Shown here piece after piece: positions 2,174 through 41,301 of a stretch of DNA of 42,242 bases. Source of the stretch: a phage; sequence record PX871047.1; one strand, written 5' to 3'. How positions within the stretch are numbered: the first letter of the stretch is position 1; the number at the start of each line of letters is the position of its first letter. A program made the translations under genes and the position numbers. The notes beneath the pieces were generated by a model. The model was not told where the DNA came from. It ran no database searches and saw only the letters and a list, made by a program, of their open reading frames with translations.

Positions 2174-2195
2174 ATCCATTTTCTGCTATGACTAG

Positions 2196-2224
2196 TTGAC
2201 TATTACCCTCGACCCTATTATATT
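2196..2224 (+). promoter_or_regulatory. sigma70-like promoter for small-gene block 2258-4168
   Basis: TTGACT - 17 nt - TATATT. Confidence 0.5.
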
Positions 2225-7575: not shown

Positions 7576-7602
7576 AAGGCCCCTTAAGGGGCCTTAGTTT
7601 TA
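7576..7602. terminator. bidirectional intrinsic terminator
   Basis: AAGGCCCC / GGGGCCTT stem; A-run upstream and T-rich downstream. Confidence 0.65.
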
Positions 7603-7845
7603 TCGCACTCTCATAAATAGCTTACCTTTGCGTTGCAACAAATCCATACCGACAGCACCTTCGCCAGATTTGTTCGGACGGCGCATTAAACTAAAGTTCC
7701 ATACTCTAGCTTTTGAAGCATCTTTCGCATTGCACACCCAAAGTCTACCATTTTCTCTTAGGTCAAATAAGTCCGATATACTGAGATTATTAACCGGTAT
7801 GAAACCGCCAATGAACTCACGTTCGCAACTAGGTAATTCCTGCAT
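7600..7845 (-). CDS. hypothetical protein, reverse-strand gene within the head module
   Basis: AGGAGG 5 nt before ATG; own promoter 7871-7899; ends at the bidirectional terminator; AT-rich. Confidence 0.6.
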   Translation of the reverse strand: MQELPSCEREFIGGFIPVNNLSISDLFDLRENGRLWVCNAKDASKARVWNFSLMRRPNKSGEGAVGMDLLQRKGKLFMRVR

Positions 7846-7870
7846 ACACCCTCCTGTTTAAGTTAACTGA

Positions 7871-7899
7871 ATAGTACCCTATTATATTGGTGTCTGCAA
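7871..7899 (-). promoter_or_regulatory. promoter with embedded AATAG-N4-CTATT dyad (type A)
   Basis: Minus strand reads TTGCAG - 17 nt - TACTAT; dyad at 7870-7883. Confidence 0.55.
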
Positions 7900-9582: not shown

Positions 9583-9608
9583 AACCACCTCCACTAGGCA
9601 TTTACTGA

Positions 9609-9637
9609 ATAGTACGCTATTATGTTGGGGTGTGCAA
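9609..9637 (-). promoter_or_regulatory. promoter with embedded AATAG-N4-CTATT dyad (type A)
   Basis: Minus strand reads TTGCAC - 17 nt - TACTAT; dyad 9608-9621. Confidence 0.55.
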
Positions 9638-9689: not shown

Positions 9690-9705
9690 AACTATTCGAA
9701 TAGTT
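9690..9705. repeat. perfect 16-bp palindrome AACTATTCGAATAGTT
   Basis: Self-complementary; same half-site (GAATAGT) as the promoter dyads but in inverted arrangement; abuts -35 of promoter 9704-9732. Confidence 0.6.
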
Positions 9706-9732
9706 GACTTTTCACTAAAAATATGATAAGCT
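9704..9732 (+). promoter_or_regulatory. promoter of ORF-less element, copy 1
   Basis: TTGACT - 17 nt - TAAGCT with TGn extended -10; same arrangement at 40955-40983. Confidence 0.45.
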
Positions 9733-9738
9733 CCACCT

Positions 9739-9940
9739 GAGCTTGTGAAGTATGAACAAGCGACCGCGGCGCGGGCAGGTAACGGAGCGGGACGTAAGTC
9801 CTGAGTGTAGTTACGCTGACGCGTTCGGAAGGGCCGTACCCTATTGCTTGTGTAAAAAGTAACTGGTTTACTGAGATTACGCCGTTTCTATGTTTAAATG
9901 ATAAGGACTAGCGCCCCGCTTTATGGCGGGGCTTTACTTA
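9739..9940 (+). ncRNA. candidate ORF-less structured transcript (putative sRNA or leader), copy 1
   Basis: No conserved ORF; 5' hairpin GCTTGT/ACAAGC (9741-9761); conserved block 9802-9835; terminal hairpin GCCCCGC/GCGGGGC (9913-9932) followed by TTTACTT; paralog at 40990-41234. Confidence 0.35.
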
Positions 9941-19304: not shown

Positions 19305-19345
19305 GGTGTAGCTCCTGTTTGAGTTAACATTGTTGGTGTAAGTGA

Positions 19346-19374
19346 ATAGTATCCTATTATGTTGGGGTGTGCAA
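19346..19374 (-). promoter_or_regulatory. promoter with embedded AATAG-N4-CTATT dyad (type A)
   Basis: Minus strand TTGCAC - 17 nt - TACTAT; 33-bp block 19342-19374 identical to reverse complement of 41273-41305. Confidence 0.6.
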
Positions 19375-31493: not shown

Positions 31494-31808
31494 TTATAAT
31501 TCCTTATATTGTTGAGGTATGTGCTTACTATAATAGTCTGCTATTAGGGTGTCAATCTGTTTTATCGAACCAACGACAAAAACATTCGCGCCACGTTTAC
31601 GCATCCGCTCGTGCTCGCGTAACTGGTGTGGGTCTGGCTTCGTGCTTTCATCTTTCTTAACCTCAACGAACCAGATGATGCCGCCGGGGAGGATTACCAA
31701 CAGGTCGGGCGCTCCGTTTCGGCCCTCATACACTATCTTACGAACGAGGCCCCCCAGGGCCTCGAATCGGTCTTTCGCGTATTTCTGTACGCGGCCCTCT
31801 TTAGTCAT
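31494..31808 (-). CDS. VRR-NUC domain nuclease
   Basis: GAPDLLVILPGG..WFVEVK...QL pattern typical of VRR-NUC; ATG 31808 coupled to upstream micro-ORF (track ORF begins at TTG 31823). Confidence 0.6.
   Translation of the reverse strand: MTKEGRVQKYAKDRFEALGGLVRKIVYEGRNGAPDLLVILPGGIIWFVEVKKDESTKPDPHQLREHERMRKRGANVFVVGSIKQIDTLIADYYSKHIPQQYKEL
31527..31555 (-). promoter_or_regulatory. promoter with embedded AATAG-N4-CTATT dyad (type B)
   Basis: Minus strand TTGACA - 17 nt - TATAGT; dyad 31532-31545. Confidence 0.6.
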
Positions 31809-35183: not shown

Positions 35184-35212
35184 AATATAATAGCTAACTA
35201 TTCAGGTGTCAA
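35184..35212 (-). promoter_or_regulatory. promoter with embedded AATAG-N4-CTATT dyad (type B)
   Basis: Minus strand TTGACA - 17 nt - TATATT; dyad 35189-35202. Confidence 0.6.
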
Positions 35213-37243: not shown

Positions 37244-37708
37244 TTATTCTTCTTCGAAATACTTGTTCTTGATTGCCGTCAGGCGTTCCAGGTATTCGGC
37301 CAGGTCTTCGTCTTTAATCGCGGCAATCTTCATCTTCTTACCGGTGAACTCTTCCAGCAGTTCGTCAGAATCATCACACGCGGCGTCGCTAGGGCCTTCG
37401 TTGATCGCATCGTCGATAGCCTGAATCTGGTCGCGCAGAGACTGGTAATCGACTTCTTCTTTCTCTTCTTCCGGCTCTGGCGTTGGTTCCTCTACTTTAG
37501 CTTTACGCGGCTTGCGTTTCGGCTTCTCTTCTTCTTCTGCCGGTTTAGTGTCAACGATGTCTTCACCTTCGACCGGGATTTCTTTTGTTGCAACAGTAGG
37601 CGTGATTGTTGCAGTTTCAGCAACGACAACTTGTTTCGCACTGTTCGCGGCAATCAGTTCATGCGCAACTACGAAACGTTCCAGTAATACTAAGAATTTC
37701 TCTAACAT
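37244..37708 (-). CDS. highly acidic early protein
   Basis: Glu/Asp-rich 154-aa ORF; GAGAGGAG RBS; flanked by consensus promoter and hairpin. Confidence 0.55.
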   Translation of the reverse strand: MLEKFLVLLERFVVAHELIAANSAKQVVVAETATITPTVATKEIPVEGEDIVDTKPAEEEEKPKRKPRKAKVEEPTPEPEEEKEEVDYQSLRDQIQAIDDAINEGPSDAACDDSDELLEEFTGKKMKIAAIKDEDLAEYLERLTAIKNKYFEEE

Positions 37709-37739
37709 TATTTATTCTCCTCTCGTTTGGTATGTGCCA

Positions 37740-37768
37740 ACTATAATAGCGAACTATTCACTTGTCAA
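37740..37768 (-). promoter_or_regulatory. promoter with embedded AATAG-N4-CTATT dyad (type B)
   Basis: Minus strand TTGACA - 17 nt - TATAGT; dyad 37745-37758. Confidence 0.65.
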
Positions 37769-37832
37769 TGGGCTTTTCTAAAATAATTAATATGGTACTA
37801 TTCACATATCAACTAACTAAGGAGTAATTGAC

Positions 37833-38048
37833 ATGCAACCATCTGAACTAGGCATCCGTGTAGAACAGCGCCGTAAAGAACTCGGTATCTCTCAGCGCCG
37901 TCTGGCGGTCCTGACCGGGGTTTCCCAGGGCGCAATTAACCAGCTTGCGCTCGGTGTAACTCAGGACGTCCGCCCGGCGACGCTGTTTAAACTGGCGGAA
38001 GTGCTGCAAGTAGACGCCAAGTGGCTGGCGTTCGGTGAAGGGGCTTAA
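37833..38048 (+). CDS. Cro/XRE-like helix-turn-helix transcriptional regulator
   Basis: LGISQRRLAVLTGVSQGAINQL HTH pattern; AAGGAG RBS; only plus-strand gene in the replication block. Confidence 0.65.
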   Translation: MQPSELGIRVEQRRKELGISQRRLAVLTGVSQGAINQLALGVTQDVRPATLFKLAEVLQVDAKWLAFGEGA

Positions 38049-38064
38049 CGCCCCTTTCTTTTTA
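38038..38064. terminator. bidirectional intrinsic terminator
   Basis: AAGGGGC / GCCCCTT stem followed by TCTTTTT. Confidence 0.6.
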
Positions 38065-38065
38065 C

Positions 38066-40333
38066 CTATTCCAAATCCTCCTCTGTCACTATCAGCATTT
38101 CATTCGGCTCGTATATTGTCTTCGGAATCTTGTTATCCGTTATCCTGGTATTAAGCCTGTAACGACCAGGGATTATCTGATTGTTTTCGTCAGTACCCGG
38201 AACAAGATACCCGGCCTCGACCATTTTCTTAATCTTCCCTCGCTCTATGGCTTCTTTGGAGTTAAACGCCTTCGCATTGGGGTCGGACTGTGCGAGCTTA
38301 TTTGCGGCGGCTACCGTGATACCTTCGTTGCCGTTGTAGGTTCCTTCCGCCAGTTCAAACGCGGCCAGTATCGTGGCCTCGGAACTGTTGACGGCGTTCT
38401 CTACGGTTTTACGTACGTTTTCTTTACCTTCCTTTGTTAGCCCTTCTTCGCGCTCTTTTTCCTCGTCGGTTTTGAACGGTTCGAAACCCCACGGCATCAG
38501 CACAAGCGCCTTGTGTGGTTCAGGCAGGTCGAGGTTTACTATTGTGCCGTATTCCTCTGTGCTACCGAGGAACTCAACAGCGCGGTACTCTTTCGGCGGC
38601 GGCGCTTCACGGAACTGTACCGACTCAAGCACCATACCAACCGTCTTCTGTTGAGGCCCGTGCTTAAATTTCGAGTGGTATACGTTTATCTGGCGGTCGG
38701 TCGCGCGTTCAATTGTCAGTTCCACGTCGACGCCAGCATACAGCGCCCCACTACCACGGGCTTTCTTTCCACCCTTCGGCGTATGGTGAACAACGCCTAC
38801 CGCGGCTTTAGTCGCGTCACGCACTTCTTTCAGGATGGCGATAACTTTACCCATGCCGATTGCCGTTGATGAGCTGTTCTCGTCGAACTTATCAATAGTC
38901 AGTGCCAGGGTCTGGTTGAGGGTGTCAAACGCGACCATGCCAATTGGCTCGTCGCCAGCAGTTTCGCGCATTAACTTAATCAGGCTCTTCAGTTTGCCGA
39001 CTTCGCCCATATCGATGACATGTACGTAATCTTTACCCTCTGCGCCGTATTTAGCAGCGAGCGCGTCAATACGTGTACGTGTGGCCGCGCCGCCCTCACC
39101 GTCGATATAGAAGTGGTGGCAACGCTGCGTATCAGCTCCCGCAAACCGGTATCCTGCGGCGCTAAGGTACATCATCCCCAGTGTATAAAACGATTTGTAC
39201 GTGCCAGATTCCCCGACGATATCCCAGATACAATCTGATGGCATGTACCCTTCAACGACGAAATCAGCCTTTACCGGTTCCGGTAACTCATCCTCCTCTG
39301 AGTCCTCGTCGTCTTCCAGGTCGTCGAGGCTGCATGAAACTGATTCACGCGCGCCCCAGCCAATTGCCTCAGCGACTTCACTGAACGGCAGCCCAGTCGC
39401 ATCGCACGCATACTTCCACACCTCTTTCGGTGACATGCCTTCGGTTGCCGTAATGTCGGTGTCGTGAATCATGGTTACGTTAGGCGCTTCATATCCTTCG
39501 CGTGGGAAGCACAGCAGGAAGTCGTCCGGGCGCGGGGTAGGGTCACTGTAGTTTTCGGCGTGTTCTGGTGTGGCTGGCATTTTCAGGCCGCGGGGCGTCA
39601 GGACTCCGCCGTACTCGAACGCCAGTGCTTCGAACGCATCAGTAAACGCTGTGCGCAGTTCTTCCGGTATCTGGTAGTCAGATGCGCTGCTCACCTCGTA
39701 ATCCGGGGTGCCTTCCAGTAACTCGTCCGGGTCAATCAGGTCGTTGCGGCGCGACCAGATAACGGTAGCGCCGACAGGAGGCAGGTACATCGGCTGGGAC
39801 AGGGTAAAACCGCTGCGGTCGGCGCCCATGCCCTTGAAGAAGTGCTCCAGCAGACCGTGGCGGACGCGGATGATATCACCGCCTTCTACCGGGCGCGCCA
39901 GCGGCATGACGACACGGAAACGCGGCGATTCGTCAGTGTGCGATGCCGTAGTGTACAGGCACAACGCTACACGACTGCGCTTAACCAGACGCACAGCCTC
40001 CTGATACTCTTCCGGTGTTGCGCTGTCGAAGTCCAGATACGCCAGCGACGATTCGCTTACAGACGCGTCACAACGGTAGAAGAAGCCTTTACGCGCTTGC
40101 TTAAAGTCACCGGTTTCCGGGTCTTTTACGGTGCTGTGCGTTGAGTCGCACGCGGCGGTAATGTAGCCCGGCGCGGTCTTTGGGTTAATCCCGTCACGAA
40201 CAGCATCTAGCGGCTGGATTAACTCTTTCAGGTCGTCCAGTGTTGCCGTGTGCGTGGTTCTGACGTTTATATCCTTTTTCTCCGCCCGCGCGTTGCGACG
40301 AGACCATGAATAGGATAAAATTACATCGGACAT
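38066..40333 (-). CDS. primase-helicase (AEP-type primase/polymerase domain fused to RecA-like helicase domain)
   Basis: N-terminal LDFD-containing primase-polymerase-like region; C-terminal Walker A GESGTYKS and RecA-like core. Confidence 0.6.
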   Translation of the reverse strand: MSDVILSYSWSRRNARAEKKDINVRTTHTATLDDLKELIQPLDAVRDGINPKTAPGYITAACDSTHSTVKDPETGDFKQARKGFFYRCDASVSESSLAYLDFDSATPEEYQEAVRLVKRSRVALCLYTTASHTDESPRFRVVMPLARPVEGGDIIRVRHGLLEHFFKGMGADRSGFTLSQPMYLPPVGATVIWSRRNDLIDPDELLEGTPDYEVSSASDYQIPEELRTAFTDAFEALAFEYGGVLTPRGLKMPATPEHAENYSDPTPRPDDFLLCFPREGYEAPNVTMIHDTDITATEGMSPKEVWKYACDATGLPFSEVAEAIGWGARESVSCSLDDLEDDEDSEEDELPEPVKADFVVEGYMPSDCIWDIVGESGTYKSFYTLGMMYLSAAGYRFAGADTQRCHHFYIDGEGGAATRTRIDALAAKYGAEGKDYVHVIDMGEVGKLKSLIKLMRETAGDEPIGMVAFDTLNQTLALTIDKFDENSSSTAIGMGKVIAILKEVRDATKAAVGVVHHTPKGGKKARGSGALYAGVDVELTIERATDRQINVYHSKFKHGPQQKTVGMVLESVQFREAPPPKEYRAVEFLGSTEEYGTIVNLDLPEPHKALVLMPWGFEPFKTDEEKEREEGLTKEGKENVRKTVENAVNSSEATILAAFELAEGTYNGNEGITVAAANKLAQSDPNAKAFNSKEAIERGKIKKMVEAGYLVPGTDENNQIIPGRYRLNTRITDNKIPKTIYEPNEMLIVTEEDLE

Positions 40334-40391: not shown

Positions 40392-40682
40392 TTAACGTTT
40401 AGCCAGACATTCCATTAAATGTGAATATTTTCTGTAATAGCAAGGAACTAAATCACACCCAAAATAATGATAAACATAAGCCAAGTGGTCAGTAACATCT
40501 ATAGCGGCTGACATTGTGCTAAGACGGCGAAGGCTAATCAACTGTAATTCTTCCGTAATGCAAAATGGTTCATACGTATCAAGTTTGCAAGAAACGTTAA
40601 AACACAGAGCATAGCCGTCTTGTGCGGAGTAGACCAGAAATGCGCTGTCGTTCTCTTTATCGTGAAAAATTACACCTTTCAT
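40392..40682 (-). CDS. hypothetical protein
   Basis: Track ORF; AAGGAGA RBS; AT-rich. Confidence 0.45.
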   Translation of the reverse strand: MKGVIFHDKENDSAFLVYSAQDGYALCFNVSCKLDTYEPFCITEELQLISLRRLSTMSAAIDVTDHLAYVYHYFGCDLVPCYYRKYSHLMECLAKR

Positions 40683-40849
40683 TTCACATTCTCCTTAACC
40701 CACGCTTCTACTTTATTTCGGTCAAACGTACCCGGCATACGGCGGCCCATTACTTTAACGCTGCAATCAGGAAACTTCCCGCTTTTAATCCAGTTATTTA
40801 TTGTCTGACGAGTAACTCCGATTAATTCTGCAACCTCGTTTATAGTCAT
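40679..40849 (-). CDS. AlpA/excisionase-family HTH regulator (putative)
   Basis: MTINEVAELIGVTRQTINNWIKSGKFP; AGGAGA RBS; ATG 40849 (track ORF begins 40939). Confidence 0.55.
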   Translation of the reverse strand: MTINEVAELIGVTRQTINNWIKSGKFPDCSVKVMGRRMPGTFDRNKVEAWVKENVK

Positions 40850-40954: not shown

Positions 40955-40983
40955 TTGACTTTTACTTAAAAATGTGCTAAGCT
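40955..40983 (+). promoter_or_regulatory. promoter of ORF-less element, copy 2
   Basis: TTGACT - 17 nt - TAAGCT with TGn; paralog of 9704-9732. Confidence 0.45.
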
Positions 40984-40989
40984 TCACTG

Positions 40990-41234
40990 AGCTTGTGAGA
41001 TATCGCAAGCGACCGCGGAGCGGCAGGGAACGCAACGCGTGCCATTAGGCACTTGAGTGTAGTTCCGCTGGCGCTTTCGGAAGGGCCAAAGTCTATTGTT
41101 AATCCCGCCTAAATACCCAAGTCACTGATAATTAAAGTTTCTATAGTTGCCGTAAGCGAGGTAGAGAGTACTTCACTCCGCTGTGGTGGGCTAACGCCCA
41201 CCCACTGCGTTGCGTACTCTTTTAAGAAACGAAA
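40990..41234 (+). ncRNA. candidate ORF-less structured transcript (putative sRNA), copy 2
   Basis: No ATG-initiated ORF; 5' hairpin GCTTGT/GCAAGC (40991-41010); conserved block 41064-41097; nested terminal hairpins AGAGTAC...GGTGGGC/GCCCACC...GTACTCT then TTT. Confidence 0.35.
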
Positions 41235-41272
41235 GAATCACAACGGCAACGTAACTATTCTCTTGCACACCC

Positions 41273-41301
41273 CAACATAATAGGATACTATTCACTTATC
41301 G
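41273..41301 (+). promoter_or_regulatory. early promoter with embedded AATAG-N4-CTATT dyad (type A)
   Basis: TTGCAC - 17 nt - TACTAT; dyad 41289-41302. Confidence 0.6.

Follow-up and report, generated by a model that had tools for sequence, protein, structure and literature searches.

The 42,242-nucleotide stretch of phage DNA analysed here (record PX871047.1; hereafter the window), which is the genome of a virulent Escherichia coli siphovirus of the genus Kagunavirus, subfamily Guernseyvirinae, carries within its sigma-70-like promoters repeated copies of one short palindrome, AATAG-N4-CTATT, that we propose to be the operator of a phage-encoded repressor. The protein that we hold, with moderate confidence, to bind these dyads is the 71-amino-acid (aa) Cro-like product of a small plus-strand gene, which would act as a dimeric repressor of the 434 Cro type. 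The mechanism envisaged is a textbook one and the gene is already annotated; it is the regulon that has apparently not been described before. A literature search of incomplete coverage found no description of an operator or regulon for the Guernseyvirinae, and according to one genome paper on a Jerseyvirus both CI and Cro are missing. A conserved regulon of 8–10 putative operators, as read from the sequence, would be a useful and modestly new result.

The gene in question and its divergent neighbour are as follows.

37833..38048, plus strand: cro-like gene, encoding a 71-aa, single-domain XRE/HTH_3 protein with the predicted recognition helix S31-Q32-G33-A34-I35-N36-Q37.

37244..37708, minus strand: first gene of the divergent operon, encoding an acidic 154-aa protein of PHROG 3127, a family of unknown function.

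The focal 1.3 kb is 90–93% identical to Kagunavirus genomes (K1G, K1ind, phiEc3/4 and Shashou) and 80–90% identical to Jerseyvirus genomes, with 446 matching phage records overall. A first-pass annotation, made by a model from the letters of the DNA, had read 37833..38048 as encoding a Cro/XRE-like regulator with a helix-turn-helix (HTH) domain, and the Pfam HTH_3 match (48.2 bits against a cut-off of 23, E 1e-12, residues 11–65) bears this out. The best sequence match in the PDB is 434 Cro, itself 71 aa long (E 2e-6, residues 6–68, 36–39% identity), and when the AlphaFold2 model of the protein (predicted local distance difference test score 77; helices at 5–17, 21–28, 32–39, 48–57 and 62–66) was submitted to Foldseek, 2cro ranked first (template modelling scores 0.73/0.79), with the controller (C) proteins of restriction-modification (R-M) systems also among the fold matches. 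The protein is collinear with 434 Cro, ends at residue 71 and matches HTH families alone in Pfam. A CI-like lysogeny repressor, in which the HTH is joined to an S24/LexA-like domain, was ruled out, as the protein has no C-terminal domain; an antitoxin of the HipB/HigA type was ruled out, as cro is monocistronic, with a terminator that begins in its final codons and the convergent primase gene coming next; and an R-M controller was ruled out, as cro adjoins the primase-helicase and acidic-protein genes and has no R-M genes beside it.

Within the Kagunavirus genus the protein is at least 94% identical, and its gene is a core gene, found in about 480 Guernseyvirinae records with its promoter, operator, Shine–Dalgarno sequence and terminator conserved. 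Relatives label it ‘transcriptional repressor DicA’, ‘repressor’ or ‘XRE family’, and the record of phage Shashou calls it ‘transcriptional regulator cro’, noting similarity to 434 Cro; because these annotations name them, both the gene call and the family are already public. The gene had been described as a lone plus-strand gene within a minus-strand replication block, and so it is in annotated relatives. The same relatives have neither an integrase nor CI among their annotated genes, and for this reason we agree with the earlier view that a lysogenic switch is not indicated. By tblastn of full relative genomes no second XRE protein was found, and the divergent gene beside cro encodes the acidic protein, not cI.

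In the window AATAG-N4-CTATT occurs in seven perfect copies against 0.02 expected and, with up to one mismatch, in 11 against 1.05 expected. An unbiased scan of the window for all palindromes of the form 5-N(0–8)-5 ranked it first, above the GC-rich terminator hairpins, and the enrichment is statistically strong. Every perfect copy (7/7) lies inside a sigma-70-like −35/−10 pair. The perfect copies occupy at least two registers relative to the core elements, and three of the four copies with one mismatch supply a third; a short palindrome that recurs in three such registers fits a site of steric repression and not an element read by polymerase. An activator role was ruled out, since the sites overlap the −10, spacer or −35 of promoters that have the normal spacing of 17 bp. 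We distinguish three classes of site. In class A (31532, 35189 and 37745, all minus strand) the arrangement is TTGACA-N4-AATAG-N4-CTAT|TATAGT, so that the dyad fills the 17-bp spacer and touches the −10, and this trio comprises the only predicted promoters in the window with an 11/12 match to consensus. In class B (7870, 9608 and 19345 on the minus strand, 41279 on the plus strand) it is TTGCAC-N10-AATAG-N2-TACTAT, the right half-site being itself the −10. Class C (2191 and 9699) consists of one-mismatch dyads centred on a TTGACT −35.

Two of the putative operators, together with the signals for expression of cro, lie between cro and its divergent neighbour.

37745..37758: putative operator O1, perfect dyad AATAG-CGAA-CTATT.

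37740..37768, minus strand: predicted promoter of the divergent operon, with −35 TTGACA at 37768..37763, a 17-bp spacer and −10 TATAGT at 37745..37740; 11/12 match to consensus.

37789..37802: putative operator O2, 9/10 dyad AATAT-GGTA-CTATT (AATATGGTACTATT).

37793..37801, plus strand: predicted cro promoter, an extended −10, TGGTACTAT (TG-G-TACTAT), with TG at 37793–94, the hexamer at 37796–37801 and a predicted start at about 37808.

37819..37824, plus strand: cro Shine–Dalgarno sequence AAGGAG, 8 nt before the ATG.

The dyad AATAGCGAACTATT is present exactly where it had been reported, at 37745–37758; as O1 it fills the spacer and touches the −10 of the predicted leftward promoter that would drive the gene for the acidic 154-aa protein and the genes downstream. 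An additional ACTATTC half-site had been noted at 37797–37803, and it too is present; it is not isolated, however, but forms the right half of the second dyad, O2. O1 thus lies in the predicted divergent promoter and O2 on the predicted cro promoter, as would be expected of a 434-Cro-type system. The single ‘defect’ in the left half of O2, a G-to-T change, is what creates the TG of the extended −10, so that O2 overlaps the −10 of cro itself. The best plus-strand candidate returned by the promoter-finding tool had been TTCACT-16-TAAAAT, the −35 of which falls in the most variable stretch of the region and is affected by a 1-nt indel. It was rejected and replaced by TGGTACTAT, because the latter matches the TTGCAC-17-TACTAT of the orthologous Jerseyvirus region, where ATTACTGTACTATT stands in the class B register.

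On the other side of O1, the first gene behind its promoter varies among Kagunaviruses (37709–37735; orthologous loci L004–L037), and several unrelated 5′ gene ends adjoin the conserved leader cctctcgtttggtatg on its left. The varying first gene and the conserved leader indicate that the promoter–operator unit is a conserved module and that a recombination junction lies at the ribosome-binding site. The conserved 5′ leader motif AAACGAGA..GAGG was dropped, having a single match in the window.

The remaining predicted promoters that carry a dyad are listed here by class.

35184..35212, minus strand: predicted class A promoter TTGACA-17-TATATT, with a perfect dyad (35189–35202) in its spacer, upstream of the gene for the single-stranded-DNA-binding protein.

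31527..31555, minus strand: predicted class A promoter TTGACA-17-TATAGT, with a perfect dyad (31532–31545), upstream of small genes and the SNF2 helicase gene.

41263..41292, plus strand: predicted class B promoter TTGCAC-17-TACTAT, with a perfect dyad (41279–41292), driving small early genes.

19345..19374, minus strand: predicted class B promoter, with −35 at 19374..19369, −10 at 19351..19346 and a perfect dyad (19345–19358).

9608..9637, minus strand: predicted class B promoter, with a perfect dyad (9608–9621), driving a small minus-strand open reading frame (ORF).

7870..7899, minus strand: predicted class B promoter TTGCAG-17-TACTAT, with a perfect dyad (7870–7883), driving an 81-aa ORF (7845..7600).

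2191..2224, plus strand: class C candidate, the one-mismatch dyad ACTAG-TTGA-CTATT on the −35 of TTGACT-17-TATATT.

9699..9732, plus strand: class C candidate, the one-mismatch dyad AATAG-TTGA-CTTTT over the −35 of TTGACT-17-TAAGCT.

The promoter at 19345..19374 would drive a minus-strand island in which relatives carry Imm-like and phosphatase genes, and the arrangement at 2191..2224 is conserved in Kagunavirus and Jerseyvirus genomes. The primase-operon promoter, upstream of 40849, has no dyad. At some class B sites (19345–19358; 27255–27303 in L002) the opposite strand reads CCTATTAT, with a −10-like hexamer, TATTAT, facing the late genes, and the annotation of PVP-SE2 places a promoter on that late-gene-facing strand; a class B dyad may therefore lie between two face-to-face promoters, the −35 on the late-gene side being poor.

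Conservation of the control region was examined by aligning 35 Kagunavirus loci anchored on the cro ATG. The half-sites of O1 and O2 show no variant in any of these loci, and TGn-TACTAT is kept in all Kagunavirus loci; the N4 spacer of O1 occurs in six versions, the three positions that separate O1 from the −35 differ in at least 10 of the 35 loci, and third-codon positions of cro vary widely. The AAGGAG varies in one locus (1/35), at 37824. In a lineage with 77% identity in Cro and an unchanged recognition helix, the DNA between the operators has diverged, and O1, O2 and TGn-TACTAT have been kept. A large protein search for wider homologues returned Kagunavirus-like lineages only, with the same helix and dyads, and did not discriminate between binders. 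At the level of whole genomes, AATAG-N4-CTATT is the top palindrome in five of five Kagunavirus genomes, with six to eight perfect copies each, and in three of three Jerseyvirus genomes, with three to five perfect copies in the same promoter contexts; the distance from the start of O1 to that of O2 is 43–45 bp in Kagunavirus and 55 bp in Jerseyvirus. The dyad has no copy in Cornellvirus SP-031, the genome of which instead contains a shifted motif, ATAATA-N6-TAATAT; intergenic sites of the form ATWWTA-N6-TAAT[AC][TC] number seven against 0.035 expected, and they take in the position homologous to O1 as well as class A-, B- and C-like contexts.

3831, 10987, 14680, 17747, 25391, 26543 and 33279 of SP-031 (L003), all intergenic: sites of the shifted motif.

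The orientation of the primase gene is reversed in SP-031, where it lies behind cro and is co-directional with it.

Several observations point to Cro as the protein that reads the dyads. It is the only candidate common to all three genera, it matches 434 Cro in fold and size, and two of the putative operators lie in its own control region. The operators of 434 are 14 bp long, and the dyad, as a putative operator, would match their geometry. Gln32 of the Kagunavirus protein aligns with the first Gln of the QQS motif in the 434 Cro recognition helix, a residue (Gln28 in the numbering of 434 repressor) that reads an outer adenine; this Gln is invariant in the three genera, each of which also retains the outer A of the half-site at the homologous operator position. 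Cornellvirus moreover keeps the cro-like gene and a related in-promoter motif in the absence of HTH_17, the rival considered below, and we count this for Cro. Clean covariation between helix and operator was only partly obtained. Cro identity is about 50% between Kagunavirus and Jerseyvirus and about 41% between Kagunavirus and Cornellvirus, the respective recognition helices being SQGAINQ, SQSLITH and TQSAISH; Cornellvirus changes both helix and motif, whereas Jerseyvirus changes the helix and keeps the dyad. The persistence of the same core dyad beside so divergent a Cro weighs against our interpretation, as do the phylogenetic profile of HTH_17, which is that of the exact AATAG-N4-CTATT (present in Kagunavirus and Jerseyvirus, not in Cornellvirus), the want of a recognisable −35 in the Kagunavirus cro promoter, and the fact that the promoters and the starts of transcription are predictions from consensus only. 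The gene had earlier been named the leading candidate for the dyad-binding factor; Cro is still the best explanation, now with imperfect covariation and a definite competitor set against it.

That competitor lies at the head of the primase operon.

40679..40849, minus strand: HTH_17 (Xis/MerR-like), 56 aa, first gene of the primase operon and rival candidate for the dyad-binding protein.

The supposition that another phage protein binds the dyads, HTH_17 being the likeliest, made early from an operator-free promoter and leaving cro with a local or unrelated role, is in our judgement unlikely. The match between its distribution and that of the exact dyad was noted above; between the two genera sharing the dyad it is 77–79% identical, against about 50% for Cro, and its own promoter has no dyad. 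In the time course of Kagunavirus K1B4, a gene labelled ‘Helix-turn-helix domain’ (008) is among the four early genes, and one labelled ‘specific DNA binding’ (004), adjoining an AAA-domain gene (005), is in the middle class; by gene order 008 is probably HTH_17 and 004 probably cro, both assignments being tentative. The putative recognition helix of HTH_17 varies within Kagunavirus, however (TRQTINNW, TRRTLNNW and SPMTLNRW), while the dyads are perfect throughout, with eight copies in L059, and no dyad lies near the HTH_17 gene. Its nearest relatives are excisionase-type proteins, and a recombination directionality factor, Apl of phage 186, is reported to bind direct repeats one helical turn apart (PMC7498355), a mode that differs from recognition of 14-bp palindromes. 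In Cornellvirus, finally, tblastn found no HTH_17 and Pfam found no HTH in ten small ORFs, yet a homologous system of in-promoter operators persists there.

The dyads might also have no phage repressor at all, being either intrinsic to a copied promoter cassette or read by a host protein, which we think slightly less likely again. All copies are in promoters, the right half of class B sites doubles as the −10 (TACTAT), and three class B promoters, near-identical over about 30 bp, may be paralogous copies. The class C sites (ACTAGTTGACTATT; 2191–2204, 9699–9712 and 1537 in L002) show a likeness, perhaps of no significance, to the core of the E. coli trp operator, ACTAGTTAACTAGT. A promoter cassette would not account well for a left half-site in spacer positions unread by sigma-70, for three different registers relative to −35 and −10, for class A promoters that have in common only the dyad and the hexamers, for half-sites that are both fixed while the N4 spacer and flanks drift, or for the distal half-site of O2, kept though the promoter does not need it; and since Cornellvirus and Jerseyvirus share a host, Salmonella, and differ in motif, a host factor is argued against as well. 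Least probable of all, in our estimation, is that the gene is a relic of the immunity region of a temperate ancestor, or acts in trans on superinfecting or resident phages. Outside the Guernseyvirinae its closest relatives are repressors from temperate phages, of the CI, Cro or immunity kind, and the ‘DicA’ and ‘repressor’ labels in relatives fall in with such an origin. Against this stand its place in the core genome, with the conserved signals already described, the presence of the operators on the phage’s own promoters, and relatives that lack integrase and CI.

Our working model for the Cro-like protein as dimeric repressor is as follows. Judging from the consensus matches, the host sigma-70 polymerase would fire the strong class A and class B promoters and the operator-free primase promoter, and cro would be made from its weak extended −10 promoter as a monocistronic mRNA of about 250 nt. 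Cro dimers would then fill the perfect 14-bp operators first and occlude polymerase, repressing the three class A promoters of the replication block, among them the O1 promoter beside cro, and the four class B promoters, which would drive the plus-strand early genes and, from three promoters that face into the late plus-strand genes, three minus-strand islands; two more promoters may respond through the one-mismatch sites over their −35. O2, being imperfect and lying on the −10 of cro itself, should fill only later, at higher protein levels, capping cro synthesis by negative autoregulation. The net effect would be to turn down early and middle transcription during infection in a self-limiting manner, without a CI partner or lysogeny. 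This fits the layout of an autoregulatory early-gene repressor put forward in the first-pass annotation, with two operators; the early timing is less certain, since the K1B4 time course probably places cro in the middle class.

The likeness to 434 Cro and its OR region extends from the protein (71 aa, five-helix HTH_3 fold, a recognition helix opening with a conserved Gln) to the putative 14-bp operator with its outer-A half-sites and to the placing of operators on two back-to-back promoters, one of them that of cro, with the predicted stronger site on the divergent promoter and the predicted weaker one on that of cro. It ends where the Kagunavirus phage is virulent, with no cI partner and no tripartite OR, where the half-site is AATAG as against ACAA in 434, where the operators are spread over at least eight promoters genome-wide, and where cro is monocistronic, with no replication genes after it. 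The proposed lytic role, turning down early promoters and limiting its own synthesis, recalls lambda Cro, which differs in fold (helix plus beta), in its 17-bp operators and in having two control regions only, OL and OR. The C proteins C.AhdI and C.Esp1396I are likewise small XRE dimers with palindromic sites on their own promoters and timed feedback, but there are no adjacent R-M genes here, the C-box differs in sequence and architecture, and activation is not indicated. The stoperators of gp71 of mycobacteriophage L5 are a case of one phage repressor with many sites scattered over the genome; they are asymmetric, lie inside transcription units and belong to the immunity repressor of a temperate phage, whereas the Kagunavirus sites are palindromic and inside promoters. 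DicA, the repressor of the Qin prophage, is an XRE-family HTH protein too, but it is longer and controls dicB/dicF; our comparison found no specific relationship to it, the ‘DicA’ name being an automatic transfer of annotation.

The cro transcript ends at a terminator that had been described as bidirectional.

38037..38065, plus strand: intrinsic terminator of the cro transcript, a hairpin (38037–38057) followed by CTTTTTAC, with the cro stop codon in the loop.

This description could not be upheld, as the T-run is on the plus strand only. RNA of the minus strand at 38037–38057 has the same stem, but UUCACC after it, the stem being followed on that strand by UUCACCGAAC; PVP-SE2 and Shashou mark the hairpin on the cro strand only, whereas they mark other terminators on both strands. 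On its own strand the primase-helicase operon has no intrinsic terminator here (38025–38075, minus). A terminator confined to the plus strand suggests that transcription of the primase operon probably continues through cro in the antisense direction, and such read-through, which probably extends into the O2/O1 region, could interfere with the expression of cro.

Few phages are isolated for therapy or food biocontrol as often as Kagunaviruses and Jerseyviruses, and labels such as ‘repressor’, ‘DicA’ or ‘cro’ in their genomes can be taken as markers of a temperate lifestyle. A stand-alone Cro-type protein with operators on the phage’s own early and middle promoters argues instead for a regulator of the lytic cycle and not an immunity repressor. 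The map of 8–10 putative operators and their promoters should be usable for engineering or for the interpretation of transcriptomes.

Separate from the dyads, two plus-strand TTGACT-N17-TAAGCT promoters are each followed by an element of about 100 nt (9739–9835 and 40989–41087; whole units 9704–9835 and 40955–41087). The copies are approximately 72–78% identical over the aligned element and flanks, both lie behind promoters without a perfect operator, and both fold into one two-hairpin shape, although the sequences of the apical stems are completely different; among ten Kagunavirus variants there are 27 consensus pairs, seven of them with compensatory double changes. With a covariance model of the leader, each Jerseyvirus genome gave a single hit, at the head-operon leader, and Rfam reported no known RNA family in the window. 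A strong terminator (9910–9938) follows the first copy, just before the head genes. In HK022, putL and putR form a pair of similar RNAs, each with two stems and about 70 nt long, that lie downstream of early promoters (PMC9378689), and the Kagunavirus leaders recall them, in layout only; by this analogy the leader may be a put-like antitermination RNA. A joint reading, which we think improbable as it stands, is that the Guernseyvirinae have built a lysis-only temporal programme from two parts of temperate phages, a stand-alone Cro repressor and put-like leader RNAs. In such a programme Cro may shut off almost all sigma-70 promoters of the early and middle classes, with three antisense promoters in the late region among them, and the leader RNAs at 9739–9835 and 40989–41087, acting in cis, may let polymerase pass the many hairpin terminators and so reach the late genes.

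Second in frequency to AATAG-N4-CTATT among the palindrome families of the window are four near-identical AGGCCC-N6-GGGCCT hairpins (7577, 16701, 29235 and 34455). The one inspected, at 7577, has an A-run on one side and a T-run on the other, as in a bidirectional terminator, and the hairpins are placed where gene blocks of opposite orientation meet, or close by, or, in the case of 34455, in the replication block.

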